From: Candidatus Omnitrophota bacterium
Lineage (GTDB): Bacteria; Omnitrophota; Gorgyraeia; Gygaellales; Profunditerraquicolaceae
DNA: 64,000 bases
Assembly (NCBI GenBank): GCA_903852325.1
Contig: CAINQO010000035.1
Location: 34,117 to 98,116 of the forward strand
Direction: 5' to 3'
This document shows positions 16,807 to 56,203 of this stretch, in pieces; position 1 is the first letter of the stretch; the number at the start of each line of letters is the position of its first letter. Both the position numbers and the translations under genes were made by a program. Under the pieces are notes generated by a model. That model saw only the letters and a list, made by a program, of their open reading frames with translations, ran no database searches and was not told the origin of the DNA.

Positions 16807-16894
16807 AGGGGCGGGATGACCCCGCACCATCTTCTAATTCACGCTTTAAGTCCTAAGGTTTAATAACAATTAACTATAAGGATGGTGCGGGGTG
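16807..16894 (+). promoter_or_regulatory. anti-SD/SD hairpin module upstream of the GT4 gene (degenerate uORF)
   Basis: CCCCGCACCATCTT (16820-16833) pairs with AAGGATGGTGCGGGG (16879-16892) over 14 bp including one G-U. The GTG start is at 16892. Confidence 0.55.
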
Positions 16895-22245: not shown

Positions 22246-22317
22246 CCCCGCACCTTCTTCGTATTCGATCTGAAGGTCAGGGGTAAAAAATAGTTAATAA
22301 TAGGAAGGTGCGGGGTG
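22246..22317 (+). promoter_or_regulatory. anti-SD/SD hairpin module between the DHS-like gene stop and the heptose kinase start
   Basis: CCCCGCACCTTCTT (22246-22259) begins directly after the TGA stop (22243-22245). It pairs over 14 bp with AGGAAGGTGCGGGG (22302-22315). The GTG start is at 22315. Confidence 0.6.
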
Positions 22318-27403: not shown

Positions 27404-28106
27404 GGGCCTGGCTAAATCCTATGACGGTCGCTGGGTGGTTAAGGGCGTGGATATCACGGTCAAGCGCGGGGAGATCGTCGGGCTTTTAGGCCCCAACGGA
27501 GCCGGCAAGACTACTACTTTTTATATGATCGTCGGGATCGTCCCCCCCAACAAGGGCACGATCGTTTTTGATAACCATGAAATCACCCGGATGGCGATCC
27601 ACGAGCGGGCGCGTTTCGGGATCGGCTATCTTGCCCAGGAACCCTCGATATTCCGGAAACTGACCGTGGAAGAAAATATCAACGCGATCCTGGAGACTTT
27701 GCCTTTGAGCCGCGCGCAGAGAAAAAACCGGCTGGCGTTTTTGCTGGAGGAGTTGAATATCGCGCACCTGGCAAAGCATAAAGCCTACACTTTAAGCGGC
27801 GGAGAGAGAAGGCGCCTGGAGATCACCCGGGCGCTGGTGACCAATCCTTCTTTTATCCTGCTGGATGAACCTTTCAGCGGGATCGACCCGATCGTCGTCA
27901 ATGAAGCGCAGGAGATCATTAAGGAATTAAAGGCCAAAGGCCTGGGTATTCTTTTGACCGACCATAATGTGCGGGAGACCCTGGCGATCACCGACCGGGC
28001 GTATTTAATTTCCGAAGGGGCGATCCTTATTTCCGGATCCGCGGAGGAGCTGATTAATCACCCTCAGGCCCGCCAGGTTTATTTAGGTGAGAAGTTTAGG
28101 ATGTAA
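27384..28106 (+). CDS. lptB: LPS export ABC transporter ATP-binding protein
   Basis: Walker A is GPNGAGKTT, the signature is [11 protein letters not shown] and Walker B is ILLDEP. The C-terminus is YLGEKFRM. Confidence 0.95.
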
Positions 28107-28248
28107 CCCCGCACCTTCTTCTGTATTCGGAAGAAAAACGGATTGATTAAAGGCGCGGGACAATAATAACCATGGTCATTTCTTTAAACATCAAGGTTCA
28201 AAGCTTAGATGCAGGGAATGATATAATTAAGAAAGAAGGTGCGGGGTG
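28107..28248 (+). promoter_or_regulatory. anti-SD/SD hairpin module (109-nt loop) between the lptB stop and the tig start
   Basis: CCCCGCACCTTCTT (28107-28120) begins directly after the TAA stop. It pairs perfectly over 14 bp with AAGAAGGTGCGGGG (28233-28246). The GTG start is at 28246. Confidence 0.6.
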
Positions 28249-29133
28249 AAAACCGAAGTTAAGAAATTAGACGGAACTAAACGTGAAATTAATGTCGCCG
28301 TGACCGGCGACTTGGTCAAAAATAAATTTGAAGAAGTTTTCGCACAGGTCGCCAAAGAAGCCAAGGTCCCGGGTTTTCGCCCGGGAAAAGCGCCCCGGGA
28401 TCTTCTGGAAAAGCATTACGGTTCCAGCGTCCATGAGCAGGTGTTAAAGGAGCTGGTCCCGGATGTGTATAACCAGGCGGTCGCGGCGGAAAAACTCGAT
28501 GTCATTGAGCTGCCCCAGATCACCGATGTGCAGCTGGATCGGGCCAGCCTTTCTTTTAAAGCGGTCGTGGAGGTCAGCCCGGAAATTACGCTGAAGAATT
28601 ATAAAAACCAGGTAATTAATTATAAGCTGCCGGTTGTTTCCGCGGATGAAGTGAAACGCCAGATCGACTCGGTCAAGGAATCGCGTAAGGCCGAAAACCT
28701 GGATGATAAATTCGCCCGCTCCCTGGGTTATCCTGATTTAGGGGAATTGGAAAAAGCGGTGGAAAGACAGATCTTTCTTACCAAGGAGAATCAGGAACGC
28801 CAGCGGATTGAAAATGAATTAATCGAAAATATTACCAAAGGGGTGGAATTTAAGCTGCCGCAAGGATTGGTGGACCGGCAGGTTCAGGATATGCTGCGGC
28901 AGACCAAGATCGATTTGGCGATGAAAGGGCTGCCCCGGGAGAAGATCGACGCGCAGGATAAATTGCTTTTAGAGGGGATCGAACCGGAAGCAAAAAAGCA
29001 GGTCAAGATTTACCTGATCCTGGCGCAGATCGCGAAAAAAGAGAATATCGCCATCGACGACCATATGCCGCGCAAGGTGATGGAGTTTCTGCTGGGTGAA
29101 GCAGAGTGGAAGGCTGCACAAGAGAATAAATAG
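28246..29133 (+). CDS. tig: trigger factor-like chaperone lacking the PPIase domain
   Basis: The N-terminal ribosome-binding signature GFRPGKAP is present. The C-terminal arm domain follows directly, giving 295 aa versus about 430 for canonical TF. Confidence 0.8.
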   Translation: MKTEVKKLDGTKREINVAVTGDLVKNKFEEVFAQVAKEAKVPGFRPGKAPRDLLEKHYGSSVHEQVLKELVPDVYNQAVAAEKLDVIELPQITDVQLDRASLSFKAVVEVSPEITLKNYKNQVINYKLPVVSADEVKRQIDSVKESRKAENLDDKFARSLGYPDLGELEKAVERQIFLTKENQERQRIENELIENITKGVEFKLPQGLVDRQVQDMLRQTKIDLAMKGLPREKIDAQDKLLLEGIEPEAKKQVKIYLILAQIAKKENIAIDDHMPRKVMEFLLGEAEWKAAQENK

Positions 29134-29266
29134 CGGTATTCATGTTGATTAGCTCCGCGCCTAAGCCTTGGATGTTACGCTTAGCATATATTCGAATATT
29201 GTAACGCGCGGAGTAAATTAAAAATTACCACTTATTATAAATAATTTTAAATTTAAGGAGGCAAAA
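29131..29266 (+). promoter_or_regulatory. structured leader/repeat upstream of clpP (copy 1 of 2)
   Basis: About 90 nt are shared with 55531-55645. The 8-bp stem CTCCGCGC/GCGCGGAG (29153-29160/29206-29213) encloses hairpin CTAAGC/GCTTAG and the palindrome ATATTCGAATAT. Confidence 0.55.
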
Positions 29267-29881
29267 ATGGATATTAAGAACCAAATATTGGTCCCGATGG
29301 TTATTGAGCAGAACCCGCGCGGTTTTGAACGCGCATACGATATTTACTCGCGCCTGCTTAAGGACCGGATCCTGTTCATCGGCACCCCCATCGACGATTA
29401 TGTCGCTAATTTAGTGATCGCCCAGCTTCTTTTCCTGCAAATGGAGGACAAAGATAAAGATATTAATATCTATATCAATTCTCCCGGGGGTTCGGTAACC
29501 GCGGGCCTGGCAATTTATGACACGATGCAATTTATCAAATGCGATGTGGCCACCTATTGCGTGGGCCAGGCAGCCAGCATGGGGGCGGTATTACTGGCGG
29601 CGGGAAGAAAAGGAAAACGTTTCGTGCTCCCCAATTCCCGGGTAATGATCCATCAGCCCTGGGGAGGGGTGCAGGGAGCGGCCTCGGATATTTCCATCCA
29701 GGCCAAAGAGATCTTAAAGCTGCGCGATCGGCTCAATGAAATCCTGGCGCACCATACCGGCCAGCCGCTGGAAAAAATACAAAAGGACACGGACAGGGAT
29801 TATTTTATGTCCGCTCAGGAATCCAAAGATTACGGTTTGGTCGATGAAGTGATCTTGCCGGAAACACCGAAAAAGAATTAA
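29267..29881 (+). CDS. clpP: ATP-dependent Clp protease proteolytic subunit
   Basis: The active-site context GQAASMGA and the MIHQP motif are present; 204 aa. Confidence 0.95.
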
Positions 29882-31076: not shown

Positions 31077-31090
31077 ATTTAGAGAAAGAG

Positions 31091-31220
31091 CAAATCCTAG
31101 GCACTAAATCCTAAACTCTAAACAAACTCAAAAAATTTAAACTCAAAACCCGAAACATGGGTTTGGAGTTTTGGATTTTGGATTTGTTTAGGATTTAGAG
31201 TTTAGTGTTTAGAGTTTAGA
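31091..31220 (+). repeat. inverted pair of heptamer tandem arrays forming a long imperfect hairpin
   Basis: The left arm is built of CTAAAYY-type 7-mers (31091-31151). The apex is AAAACCC-gaaacat-GGGTTT. The right arm is built of TTTAGRR/TTTGGAK 7-mers (31159-31220). Confidence 0.5.
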
Positions 31221-31240
31221 ATAATAATGAGGGGTGAGAG

Positions 31241-35852: not shown

Positions 35853-37198
<1,346 letters not shown>

Positions 37199-53550: not shown

Positions 53551-53719
53551 AGGAAGGGCGGGATGAACCCTGCATTTTCTTGTTATTCAATATTAAAGTC
53601 TTAGGAATTTGATGATTAAACAGAAGGAAGGTGCGGGGGTGAATCCCGCTCCTTCTAATTGTTCAATGCTAAAACCCATACGTTTTAAAGAATTCAATAA
53701 GAAAGAAGGAGCGGGATGA
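53551..53719 (+). promoter_or_regulatory. tandem (about 2.5 copies) anti-SD/SD hairpin modules with two uORFs between trpS and scpA
   Basis: The arms lie at 53551-53562, 53568-53582, 53621-53639, 53644-53656 and 53704-53716. The last pair is a perfect 13-bp helix covering the SD GAAGGAG and the A of ATG 53716. Confidence 0.6.
53639..53719 (+). CDS. candidate 26-aa leader peptide (uORF2); its stop overlaps the scpA ATG
   Basis: The frame GTG 53639 to TGA 53717-53719 encodes (V/M)NPAPSNCSMLKPIRFKEFNKKEGAG. It is preceded by an SD copy GAAGGTG and is homologous to the uORF at 35853-35933. Confidence 0.35.
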   Translation: MNPAPSNCSMLKPIRFKEFNKKEGAG

Positions 53720-54489
53720 ATTATAAAATCCGCTTAGAGATGTTTGAGGGGCCCTTAGACCTGCTGCTTTACCTGGTCAAGAAAGACCACCTGAATATCT
53801 ACGATATCCCCATCGCCAAGGTCACCCAGCAATACCTGGAATATATCAACCTGATGCAGCTTTTGGATTTGAATGTGGTCGGGGAGTTTTTGGTGATGGC
53901 GGCGACCCTGATGCAGATAAAATCCAAGATGCTTCTTCCGGCGGAGGAGTTGGCCGCGCAGGAGGAGGAAGAGGATCCGCGCGCTGAGCTGGTCAAGCGG
54001 CTTTTGGAATATGAAAAATTCAAACAGATCGCCGAAAATTTAAAACAGCGGGAAGCCAGCCAGCAGGAAGTTTTTAAACGCCCCAAGACCGAGACCCCGC
54101 AGGAGCTGCAGGTGCAGGATAAGGAAGAGGAAAAGTATTTTGAAGCCAGCATTTTTGACCTGATCGATGCCTTTTCCCGGGCGATCAAAGACATCCCCCG
54201 GGAAGTTTTTTACGAAGTGATTAAGGATCAGTTTACGGTCGAGCAGAAGGTGCATGATATTCTGCATTTATTGCTGGTAGAAACAAAAATCAAGCTTTCG
54301 GATCTTTTCTCCAAGAGCAAGGGCAAGCTAGAGATCATCGCCATATTTTTGGCGATCCTTGAGCTGGCGAAAATGAAGGAGATCCTTGCCCGCCAGGACG
54401 CCGATTTTGCCGACATTATCATTATCCGCAACAAGGAAAACATAATCCCTTATGAACGAAGAGACCAGACACCCGCTGCTGAAGGCTAA
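53716..54489 (+). CDS. scpA: segregation and condensation protein A
   Basis: FEGPLDLLLYLVKKDHLNIYDIPIAKVTQQYLEYI N-terminus. Confidence 0.9.
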   Translation: MNYKIRLEMFEGPLDLLLYLVKKDHLNIYDIPIAKVTQQYLEYINLMQLLDLNVVGEFLVMAATLMQIKSKMLLPAEELAAQEEEEDPRAELVKRLLEYEKFKQIAENLKQREASQQEVFKRPKTETPQELQVQDKEEEKYFEASIFDLIDAFSRAIKDIPREVFYEVIKDQFTVEQKVHDILHLLLVETKIKLSDLFSKSKGKLEIIAIFLAILELAKMKEILARQDADFADIIIIRNKENIIPYERRDQTPAAEG

Positions 54490-55504
54490 TTCCGTTATCA
54501 CCGACGTAAAAGAATCCGAAGAGGATATTGTTTTAAATATATCCCTGCGGCCAAATAAATTTACGGATTTTGTCGGGCATAAGGATATCGTGGATAACCT
54601 TAAAATTTCCATCCAGGCCGCCAAGCAAAGGAGCGAGCCCCTGGAGCATGTGCTTTTAAGCGGGCCTCCGGGTTTAGGCAAAACTTCCCTGTCGCATATT
54701 ATCGCTCACGAAATGGGGGCAAAGATCACCGCCACCAGCGGCCCGGCGATCGAGCGGGCCGGGGACCTGATCGGGATCCTTACCAACCTGGAAAGAGGGG
54801 ATATCCTGTTTATCGACGAGATCCACCGGATGTCTAAAGTCGTGGAAGAATTCCTGTATCCGGCGATGGAAAGTTTCCAGATCGATTTTATAATCGATAA
54901 AGGCCCTTACGCTAAAACGATTAAATTCAACCTCAAGCCTTTTACCCTGATCGGCGCCACCACCCGCACCGGGCTTCTGGCCGCTCCGCTCAGGGGGCGC
55001 TTCGGTTTGTTCTACAGCCTGGATTTTTATAAAGAGGAGGAGCTGGCCAGAATAATCAAAAATTCAAGCCAGCTGTTGACGATAAAGATCGATGACGCGG
55101 CGGCACTGGAGATCGCCAAGCGTTCCCGGGGGACTCCCCGGATCGCCAACCGCCTCCTGCGCCGGGTAAGGGATTACGCTCAGGTGTTGAAAATGGATAA
55201 AGTCGAACGGGCCTCGGCCTCCAAGATCCTGGATGACCTGGGTATCGACCAGGCCGGGTTTGATGACCTGGACCGTAAAGTTTTGAGATTAATTTTGGAA
55301 TCATTCGGCGGAGGGCCGGTGGGGATAGAATCTTTGGCCGCCAGCCTCAATGAAGAAGTGGATACGATCGAAGATGCGGTGGAACCCTATCTGTTGATGG
55401 CCGGATATTTAAAGCGCACTTCCCGGGGGCGCCTGGCCACCCGTAAAGCTTATGAACATTTCGGTTTAAAATTCAACCGGGAACAGCAGGAAGAGATTTT
55501 CTAA
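54452..55504 (+). CDS. ruvB: Holliday junction branch migration helicase RuvB
   Basis: LRPNKFTDFVGH, GPPGLGKTSL, IDEIHR and RGTPRIANRLLRRVRD motifs. Confidence 0.95.
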   Translation: MNEETRHPLLKANSVITDVKESEEDIVLNISLRPNKFTDFVGHKDIVDNLKISIQAAKQRSEPLEHVLLSGPPGLGKTSLSHIIAHEMGAKITATSGPAIERAGDLIGILTNLERGDILFIDEIHRMSKVVEEFLYPAMESFQIDFIIDKGPYAKTIKFNLKPFTLIGATTRTGLLAAPLRGRFGLFYSLDFYKEEELARIIKNSSQLLTIKIDDAAALEIAKRSRGTPRIANRLLRRVRDYAQVLKMDKVERASASKILDDLGIDQAGFDDLDRKVLRLILESFGGGPVGIESLAASLNEEVDTIEDAVEPYLLMAGYLKRTSRGRLATRKAYEHFGLKFNREQQEEIF

Positions 55505-55645
55505 ATTAACAATTGCCACTGATTATAATAGGTAGTGGTTGAAAGCGTCGAACTAAGCCTATAGGTTACGGTTTATATATATTCGAATATTGAAACGTTC
55601 GACGTAAATTAAAAATTACCACTGATTATAAACAATTTTTAATTT
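55505..55645 (+). promoter_or_regulatory. structured leader/repeat upstream of queH (copy 2 of 2)
   Basis: The 8-bp stem CGTCGAAC/GTTCGACG (55546-55553/55597-55604) compensates for the copy-1 stem. It carries the same ATATTCGAATAT palindrome and the AAATTAAAAATTACCACT tail. It is flanked by direct repeats AATT(G/A)CCACTGATTATAA (55511-55528 and 55614-55631). Confidence 0.55.
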
Positions 55646-56203
55646 ATGGATATTCTGTTGCACATCTGCTGCGGGCCTTGTTTGATTTATCCTTTCGGCA
55701 AATTAAAAGAAAAAGGATTTAATATCCGGGGTTATTACTATAATCCCAATCTCTATCCGCAGGATGAATATCTTCGCCGCGTTGAGGCGCTGCAGCTCTT
55801 ATGCCGGGAATTTTCGCTGGAGGTCGCCTATCCCGGGCACAACCCTGAGGATTTTTCCCGGACAGTTAAATCCCTGGAAGATCCTTTGGCAAAACAGCGC
55901 TGCGTTTTATGCTGGTCATTGCGTTTGCGTAAGACCGCCCAGGCGGCCAGGGAAGCCGGCGTAAAAACGTTCAGCACTACTTTATTGGTCAGCCCGTACC
56001 AGGATCATGACGCGTTGCGCCGTTTAGGCACTCAGATCGCCCGGGAAACCGGCGTAGATTTTTATTATGAAGATTTCCGCCCCGGGTTTAAATGGGCGCA
56101 GCAGGAAGCGAAAGATAAAGGTATTTACCGGCAAAAATATTGCGGCTGCGAATATTCCATGGTGAAAACAAAACCGGCCGCACCGGTCCAGGCAAAAAAA
56201 TGA
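55646..56203 (+). CDS. queH: epoxyqueuosine reductase QueH (DUF208)
   Basis: LLHICCGPC start and the later CxxC and CGCEYS motifs. It lies in a locus with queA and tgt. Confidence 0.85.
   Translation: MDILLHICCGPCLIYPFGKLKEKGFNIRGYYYNPNLYPQDEYLRRVEALQLLCREFSLEVAYPGHNPEDFSRTVKSLEDPLAKQRCVLCWSLRLRKTAQAAREAGVKTFSTTLLVSPYQDHDALRRLGTQIARETGVDFYYEDFRPGFKWAQQEAKDKGIYRQKYCGCEYSMVKTKPAAPVQAKK

Follow-up and report, generated by a model that had tools for sequence, protein, structure and literature searches.

The 141-nt spacer between ruvB and queH in the 64-kb stretch of Candidatus Omnitrophota DNA analysed here (the window, meaning that whole stretch) is a lineage-specific insertion of a small structured element, a second copy of which lies between tig and clpP. 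The element consists of a core of about 60 nt followed, immediately on its 3' side, by an A-rich/U-rich hairpin. The direct repeat that brackets the core at queH is the 5' arm plus loop of this hairpin, doubled by a partial duplication specific to that copy. The queH copy has lost nothing, since the element never had a Shine-Dalgarno (SD) sequence, and the SD of clpP and both start codons are the target loci's own. Two compact operon junctions of an uncultured phylum, which in relatives are translationally coupled or nearly so, have been opened by these small structured insertions, and transcription and translation of the downstream gene have to proceed differently as a result. The motif is new, in that it is uncatalogued, absent from Rfam, supported by covariation and present in at least two copies per genome; it can now be modelled and searched for. 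Its main interest lies in the element family and its mosaic behaviour, above the repeat itself.

Insertion at two compact operon junctions

In the window, the stop codon of ruvB (54452 to 55504, + strand; assigned from its open reading frame (ORF) and from RuvB domains in Pfam) is the TAA at 55502-55504. As queH (55646 to 56203, + strand; Pfam QueH) begins with ATGGATATT (MDI), the spacer occupies 55505-55645. The RuvB C terminus, ...QEEIF*, is the same as in relatives. The homologues of QueH, Tig and FtsA are all labelled Candidatus Omnitrophota or Omnitrophica, and three relatives, with QueH 65-73% identical to that of the window, served for the ruvB-queH comparison. The order trpS-scpA-ruvB-queH-GHL10-queA-tgt is complete in two of them, while the third, a short contig, shows the local part. 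In these syntenic relatives the ruvB-queH spacer measures 6 nt (L006, TAG TAAGCA ATGGATATC), 13 nt (L009) and 0 nt (L011, TAG TTGGATATT). The insertion suspected by an earlier, sequence-only reading of this DNA, which had proposed an empty-site comparison at this junction, is thus borne out. The same outcome was obtained at tig-clpP, where the spacer is 14-16 nt long in three relatives (Tig 85-87% identical) and contains little beyond a GGAGG-type SD. The queH leader is, as had been supposed, a paralogue of the clpP leader, and the latter is itself an insertion. A fourth relative, L017, has a 141-nt tig-clpP spacer made of unrelated G/T-rich repeats, without the core. No conservation was found in the 5' untranslated region (UTR) of orthologous queH or clpP, the spacers of the relatives being 0-13 and 14-16 nt long. 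Four independent assemblies, made from other sequencing runs, contain the ruvB-queH spacer of the window without a single difference, so it is no artefact of assembly.

At the tig-clpP junction, Tig in the window ends with ...EWKAAQENK* (29116-29133), about three residues beyond the ends of its relatives (...DWQAAS*, ...NWQPVS* and ...NWVVV*); the insertion may have changed the last tig codons and provided the stop codon.

The sequence-only reading had gone further and suggested that whole cassettes of 5' UTR plus start codon are being copied between unrelated genes. This did not hold up. Among 21 full-length QueH homologues whose N termini were inspected, 16 begin with MDILLHICCGPC and the others with near variants, and in relatives MDILLH (ATGGATAT) stands directly after ruvB. 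Judged from these N termini, MDILLH is the ancestral QueH start. For the same reason, namely that homologues begin with MDILLH, we favour the ATG at 55646 as the start of queH; one public QueH gene call (P0001, 181 aa) begins at TTG 55658 rather than at this ATG. At the other locus, the clpP SD (AAGGAGG) and ATG (29255 to 29269, + strand) lie outside the element, and relatives without the element have a GGAGG-type SD right after tig. Even in L017, which is without the core, the SD and the MDIKNQ start agree with those of clpP in the window (AAAGGAGGATTAAAG ATGGATATAAAGAATCAA; SD segment AAAGGAGGATTAAAGATGGATATAAAG). The homology between the two window copies stops at AATTTA (29250-29255 and 55641-55646), upstream of the SD, and downstream of this point the ancestral sequence of each locus takes over, which at clpP comprises an SD and the ATG and at queH the ATG alone. 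The 12-nt segment AAGGAGGCAAAA had been described as missing from the queH copy relative to the clpP copy; the gap is formally correct, but it is better read as the end of homology. Members of the family outside the window lie antisense to their neighbours, which also speaks against copied cassettes.

Both clpP (29267-29275) and queH (55646-55654) begin with ATGGATATT, each start being ancestral at its own locus. From the sequence, this shared stretch could have served as microhomology guiding ectopic copying or anchoring, or could be due to chance. Identical leaders plus identical first codons do not prove a copied cassette, and this should serve as a warning in annotation.

The earlier claim that queH lacks an SD holds: in the 20 nt before its ATG, where the sequence directly before the start is TTTTTAATTT, the best anti-SD duplex reaches +0.6 kcal/mol, compared with -12.1 kcal/mol for clpP. 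SD-poor starts are not rare in the window, about 43% of 61 crude ORF starts being weaker than -4.5 kcal/mol. The ancestral queH, with little or no SD and 0-13 nt after ruvB in relatives, looks like a case of translational coupling.

The direct repeat and the fold of the window copies

The reported repeats, AATTGCCACTGATTATAA (55511-55528) and AATTACCACTGATTATAA (55614-55631), are at the positions claimed and are identical at 17 of 18 positions. Their full length is 27 nt, with 25 positions matching. The first direct repeat, DR1 (55502 to 55528, + strand; TAAATTAACAATTGCCACTGATTATAA), starts with the first base of the ruvB stop codon, which makes up its first 3 nt, and the second, DR2 (55605 to 55631, + strand; TAAATTAAAAATTACCACTGATTATAA), follows the core; each includes one of the 18-mers. 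The direct-repeat score of the queH copy is 44 against 14.5 +/- 2.4 in shuffles. The 18-mer is not a common AT-rich motif, an explanation that had been left open: with up to three mismatches allowed, shuffling predicts 0.04 matches for the 64-kb window, and 3 were found. None of these lies outside the two element copies; besides the two at queH there is one at 29223-29240 in the clpP leader.

The fold of the queH copy comprises a hairpin Ha, the core and a hairpin Hb, all given for the + strand. In Ha (55506 to 55542), DR1 (55506-55517) pairs with GGUAGUGGUUGA (55531-55542) through 11 pairs including three G.U. Its fold energy is -8.0 kcal/mol on the + strand and -4.3 kcal/mol on the - strand; it folds well on the + strand only, because three of its pairs are G.U. 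The structured core (55546 to 55604) is closed by stem P1 (55546-55553 with 55597-55604), followed by J1 (CUAAGCCUAUAG, 55553-55564), P2 (GUUAC, 55565-55569, with GAAAC, 55592-55596) and P3 (AUAU-UCGA-AUAU, 55579-55590). This core scores 84.6 bits with our covariance model R1 and has a fold energy of -15.2 kcal/mol (z = -2.6). Hb (55605 to 55646) has a 13-bp stem of A-U pairs only, UAAAUUAAAAAUU (55605-55617) with AAUUUUUAAUUUA (55634-55646), the final base of which coincides with the A in the AUG of queH; its energy is -5.4 kcal/mol (z = -4.1). Of the 42 positions of the Hb module, 39 are identical in the 3' module of the clpP copy, and Hb is the degenerate counterpart of the terminator-like hairpin found after the core in other genomes.

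The clpP copy has a core of a different subfamily (29153 to 29213, + strand; P1 CUCCGCGC/GCGCGGAG; 78.3 bits with R1). Its 3' A/U module (29214 to 29255, + strand) includes the third copy of the 27-mer (29214-29240) and forms a weak hairpin of -2.7 (about -3) kcal/mol. Each window copy points in the same direction as the genes on either side of it, and the pairs of its 3' hairpin are all A-U.

This arrangement shows what the repeat is. DR2 is in the usual place of the hairpin 5' arm plus loop and pairs with AAUUUUUAAUUUA; DR1 is a second copy of this segment on the 5' side of the core and pairs with GGUAGUGGUUGA. As each of them forms a hairpin, the core has a hairpin module on either side, and the two modules have their 5' halves in common. 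When flanking repeats were tested in nine family members (described below), only the queH copy was significant (direct repeat, P < 0.001). The same insert has a 14-nt terminal inverted repeat, TAAATTAACAATTG and CAATTTTTAATTTA, matching at 13 of 14 positions (P = 0.012). In the other eight members no significant terminal inverted repeat (P = 0.07-0.9) and no flanking direct repeat was found. A degenerate upstream repeat in the clpP copy was also looked for by local alignment of the left flanks of the two window copies, whose apparent similarity scores at the shuffle mean. Flanking repeats were therefore rejected as a hallmark of the family. The idea that the repeat is an insertion footprint has to be given up as well: the 27-mer occurs once inside the clpP copy, without an upstream partner, and is absent from the empty sites, and none of the other eight members has flanking direct or inverted repeats. 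Since it is absent from the empty sites and single in the clpP copy, the repeat is no target-site duplication.

The sequence-only reading had also proposed the repeats as alternative pairing partners for GGTAGTGG (55531-55538). The whole insert folds as one long stem-loop with a minimum free energy (MFE) of -34.6 kcal/mol, and forcing the pairing AGUGGU:ACCACU with DR2 costs only about 2.5 kcal/mol over this. The segment GGUAGUGG can pair with either repeat because DR1 and DR2 are near-identical. The alternative pairing is thus energetically possible, but it is specific to the queH copy, and comparison with other members lends it no support. In viral contigs and in phage and plasmid collections, 46 scattered single matches to a degenerate 17-mer from the repeat were obtained; none has a core in its vicinity, and we attribute them to chance.

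The element family in other Omnitrophota genomes

A pattern of the conserved core was searched over a genome collection and the metagenomes of JGI, followed by a search with covariance model R1. The pattern gave four matches in two Omnitrophota metagenome-assembled genomes (MAGs) of the genome collection, and two genuine matches plus one chance match (L024) in the JGI metagenomes; R1 added a more diverged seventh outside copy (L023:9185-9248). Altogether, the seven cores found in other Omnitrophota MAGs score 59.6-88.5 bits and, with the window copies, make nine strong members. There are two copies in the 64-kb window and, by the exact pattern, two per species-representative MAG.

The core is 59-61 nt long in this family. 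The closing stem P1 has 8 bp and occurs in the variants CUCCGCGC, CGUCGAAC, CGCCGAAC, CAUCGAGC, UACCGGCC and CACCGCGC, all of them fully paired, and its central CG step is invariant among the nine members. The 5' bulge, CUAAGCCU(N1-4)GAU, is nearly invariant and P3 (AUAU-UCGA-AUAU) fully so. P2 is GUUAC/GUAAC, except for one copy with the compensatory GAUAU/GUAUC. The invariant loops of the core are CUAAGCC, GUUAC and AUAUUCGAAUAU, and its interior can be written as a nearly invariant CUAAGCC...GUUAC...AUAUUCGAAUAUUG.AAC. In the model-based alignment 94% of the cells are paired, compared with 25-50% in slid controls. The compensatory (two-sided) cells number 15 against 4.8 +/- 1.9 in shuffles, a value reached by none of 500 shuffles, and five pairs change on both sides (four in P1 and one in P2). 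Because the helices contain G.U but no A.C pairs, it is the modelled strand that folds, which is the + strand in the window. The CUAAGCC bulge is complementary to the bases right after GUUAC in 8 of the 9 copies, with a summed best-helix length of 45 against 29.2 +/- 2.9 under a composition null. Such a pairing would indicate a three-way junction or a pseudoknot; it is only suggestive, because the copies are related.

The core does not correspond to a catalogued RNA. Rfam 15 gave no match at the gathering score over the whole window; with permissive settings the spacer had only chance-level matches (E >= 0.16), and in six family loci only tRNAs were credible, none of them overlapping a member. 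The T-loop-like sequence UUCGAAU raised the question of a tRNA- or tmRNA-like molecule, and ARAGORN finds nothing of the kind. No match to the core was found in viral contigs or in phage and plasmid collections. A mini-ORF of 10 codons (AUG UUA CGN UUA NNN UAU AUU CGA AUA UUG UAA, for MLRLxYIRIL) runs through the core in 6 of the 9 copies (29173-29205 at clpP, with equivalents in L018-L022). It probably encodes no peptide and was rejected as such, as AUU CGA AUA UUG is without synonymous variation and the queH copy and L023a have no AUG. Most copies, the queH copy not among them, also have a CsrA-type GGA motif (AGGAUGU) in J1, on which one can only speculate.

All seven outside copies are intergenic and antisense to both neighbours, and for that reason they are not 5' leaders. 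Two of them occupy an orthologous site between ftsA and a yggS-like gene (L019 and L021); others lie between a ybaB-like gene and recR (L023b), upstream of thrS among tRNA genes (L018), next to recG (L020) and next to a radical SAM gene (L022). In 6 of the 7 the core is directly followed by a long hairpin whose 5' arm is A-rich and whose 3' arm is U-rich, all in Watson-Crick pairs (-6.7 to -15.4 kcal/mol), which abuts the stop codon of a convergent gene. On sequence grounds this hairpin looks like a shared bidirectional terminator. Counting the window copies, 7 of the 9 cores abut a hairpin that starts with UAAA; in L018 and L023b it starts with CAA. Scans for sigma-70 promoters and terminators, made on the window copies and four outside copies, gave nothing above shuffle expectation or consistent between loci.

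The site downstream of ftsA is occupied in L019 and L021, decayed in L027 and L028, empty of the element in L025 and L026 and filled with a different hairpin in L029. The decayed core (L027:2500-2562, - strand; same coordinates in L028) reads UUUAACCUGAAUGAUACG...UGUAUCG, scores 13.9 bits with R1 and precedes an A/U hairpin; just an ordinary G-C-rich terminator stands at this site in L025 and L026. This pattern is patchy and does not settle the choice between vertical inheritance and mobility. The window contains no orthologues of the genes that neighbour same-subfamily cores in other MAGs.

Cores and flanks have different affinities. The queH core is 70% identical to the clpP core but 93% identical to the core of L019 in another MAG, and the clpP core is 95% identical to that of L021, again in another MAG. 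The 3' modules of the two window copies, on the other hand, are 93% identical to each other and differ from the 3' hairpins that accompany cores of the same subfamily elsewhere. This mosaic may reflect an exchange of flanks by gene conversion within the genome, or a mobile core that landed at the 5' foot of an A/U-rich hairpin.

A further cluster of related structures was seen in L018 upstream of thrS (L018:5294-6100). It is a tandem array of about seven hairpins, one of them a broken core, in which a variable 8-bp closing stem surrounds either UUAGACUGGAUAUUC...GGUAGC or a core-like interior. Between these weak relatives under R1 lie three tRNA genes on the opposite strand, and the array looks like a cluster of the BIME (bacterial interspersed mosaic element) kind or of sibling small RNAs (sRNAs).

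Explanation, alternatives and known counterparts

The explanation that we favour, and hold to be probable though by no means secure, is that of an inserted, dispersed structured element with a copy-specific duplication of half a hairpin and without an SD of its own, read through on the + strand. Our best guess for the element itself is a transcribed small structured RNA that now serves as an intercistronic spacer. In this scheme the + strand would be transcribed, and elsewhere the family would act as a small RNA unit whose end is set by a bidirectional terminator that serves the convergent gene as well. The window copies, with no G-C pairs in their 3' hairpins, would probably be read through as intercistronic structured RNA. 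This RNA would break the coupling of queH to ruvB and might contribute to stabilising or processing the transcript. For queH, translation would then begin without an SD, by initiation in an A/U-rich stretch where a weak hairpin has its foot. Such a start would accord with what is generally known of S1-dependent and low-structure initiation.

Several points weigh against this explanation. The nearest available relatives are distant (QueH at most 73% identical), so that the insertion is undated and its edges are not fixed to the base. The explanation accounts neither for the origin of DR1, nor for the mosaic of divergent cores and near-identical 3' modules, nor for the coincidence that clpP and queH share the start ATGGATATT. 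The outside 3' hairpins fail a simple terminator rule (loops of 10-16 nt and at most three G-C pairs), and no consistent sigma-70-like promoter precedes the outside cores, although the promoter type of the phylum may differ.

That a cassette of promoter, 5' UTR and start codon was copied before unrelated genes, the queH copy losing its SD by a 12-nt deletion, is highly improbable. Both window copies do lie directly upstream of ORFs in sense orientation, the alignment picks up again with TGGATATT past the 12-nt gap, and repeats of this sort are known in other bacteria (PMC3184786). Against these stand the ancestral MDILLH start (ATGGATAT) directly after ruvB, the clpP SD and MDIKNQ in core-less L017 together with the SD right after tig in other relatives, and the seven members elsewhere, which are antisense and followed by the 3' end of a convergent gene. 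It is likewise very unlikely that the leader is a cis-regulatory switch of queH (attenuator, thermometer or riboswitch) in which GGUAGUGG(UUGA) pairs with DR1 or DR2 and so opens or closes the hairpin at the AUG. The two near-equivalent partners, the small cost of forcing the DR2 pairing (about 2.5 kcal/mol above the MFE) and the position of the AUG at the foot of Hb with low predicted accessibility would all suit a switch, but DR1 and Ha occur in the queH copy alone, so that comparative support is wanting, and the alternative pairing is an automatic consequence of any duplication. Moreover, queH in relatives is without any leader, no Rfam riboswitch matches, and the core is shared with loci unrelated to queuosine.

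[quoted passage not shown] The 14-nt inverted repeat at the ends of the queH insert (13/14, P = 0.012), its ability to form a single long stem-loop (-34.6 kcal/mol) and the 93-95% identity of cores at non-orthologous sites of different MAGs agree with this. We nevertheless consider it unlikely. The repeat is element sequence: the clpP copy contains it and the empty sites do not. Known transposons generally make target-site duplications of a few bp. The 27 nt found here far exceed such lengths (one example has 5 bp; PMC3184786). Furthermore, 8 of the 9 members have no flanking direct or inverted repeat, the terminal inverted repeat is a duplicated hairpin arm facing its partner, no transposase is found nearby, and viral contigs, phages and plasmids hold no match to the core.

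A doubtful reading, to which we give somewhat more room, takes the core alone as the mobile unit, inserting site-specifically at the 5' foot of A/T-rich hairpins, so that the window flanks would be one repeated hairpin module that received two different cores. There are precedents for such target choice, since class C group II introns target terminators. Some insertion sequence (IS) elements target repetitive extragenic palindrome (REP) sequences (PMC3184786). Same-subfamily cores are 93-95% identical across MAGs with unrelated 3' hairpins, while in the window the situation is reversed, the copies sharing some 10 nt 5' of the core and 42 nt 3' of it although the cores are 70% identical, and 7 of the 9 cores abut a hairpin starting with UAAA. 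However, an unoccupied hairpin module was not found, except possibly Ha, no mobilising enzyme was identified, gene conversion between copies could give the same pattern, and only nine members are known. Its stronger form, a core of about 60 nt that is a small mobile structured RNA or DNA unit, moving by itself between genomes and loci and landing specifically at the 5' foot of an A/U-rich terminator hairpin, is improbable in our view. The fold of such a unit may include a pseudoknot or three-way junction between CUAAGCC of J1 and the bases after GUUAC. A mobile core would explain the 93-95% identity of cores at unrelated sites with locus- or genome-specific flanks, and also the two different cores at the same position of one repeated hairpin module. 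Should the core prove to be independently mobile, or to be a trans-acting RNA, it would open a new way to study gene regulation and the plasticity of genomes in Omnitrophota.

Returning to the inserted structured element as such, it belongs to the broad kind of small dispersed structured intergenic elements. REPs and BIMEs of Enterobacteria, Pseudomonas and Stenotrophomonas are imperfect extragenic palindromes of 21-65 bp, and REPs can stabilise upstream mRNA (PMC3184786). Our element resembles them in being a short stem-loop palindrome (core of 59-61 nt, supported by covariation) in intergenic positions, often at 3' ends or inside operons, and in occurring singly or in clusters, the array of L018 being cluster-like. 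It differs in its A/T-rich, complex and asymmetric interior with invariant loops and in a closing stem that varies by compensatory changes rather than being a fixed family sequence. Its copy number also seems lower, at two in 64 kb and two per species-representative MAG by the exact pattern, against tens to hundreds per genome for REPs. No REP-associated tyrosine transposase (RAYT; Y1/HUH) was seen in the fetched loci, a full-genome search not having been made. With MITEs such as the Neisseria Correia element it shares a length below 200 bp, intergenic location, polymorphic presence, the possibility of a long stem-loop as RNA and that of co-transcription with neighbours. Unlike MITEs, the family has neither terminal inverted repeats nor a target-site duplication, the queH repeat being internal element sequence.

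The nearest precedent for copied cassettes is provided by Neisseria REP2 and Borrelia IR-A, which are repeats carrying a promoter, a ribosome-binding site (RBS) and an ATG (PMC3184786). They too are repeats of 120-150 nt with internal stem-loops, and the window copies likewise stand immediately upstream of ORFs, but the element has no RBS or ATG and most of its members are not upstream of ORFs in sense orientation. The outside copies rather resemble sRNA genes that share a bidirectional terminator (or intra-operon and 3'-UTR sRNAs), in their location, with the start of a divergent gene on one side and the end of a convergent gene on the other, in the Watson-Crick A-tract/hairpin/U-tract that follows 6 of the 7 cores and in their covarying structure with invariant single-stranded loops. 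They depart from sRNA genes in that no promoter was identified, that near-identical cores occur at non-orthologous sites of different genomes, which would be unusual for sRNA genes of the ordinary sort, and that Rfam has no match.

Two other kinds of dispersed repeat were noticed in the course of this work. A second repeated leader family in the window is characterised by a hairpin of CCCCGCACCUUCUU with AAGAAGGUGCGGGG that covers the SD and the GTG or ATG start. It is found before tig (28096-28120 with 28233-28257) and scpA (53640-53721) and at 35854-35935, 22246-22317 and 16856-16894, shows compensatory differences (for example, CCCGCGCC/GGTGCGGG versus CCCGCTCC/GGAGCGGG) and is absent from the tig leader of L013. 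In addition, the spacer between an aminotransferase gene and serA (31077-31240) contains long low-complexity hairpins with an A/C-rich arm (AAATCCTAAACTCTAAAC...) opposite a G/T-rich arm (GTTTAGGATTTAGAGTTTAG...). Repeats of the same kind fill the tig-clpP spacer of L017 (L017:2377-2517) and the site downstream of ftsA in L029 (L029:1990-2140), and these A/C-G/T hairpins look like another dispersed, spacer-filling element of these genomes.

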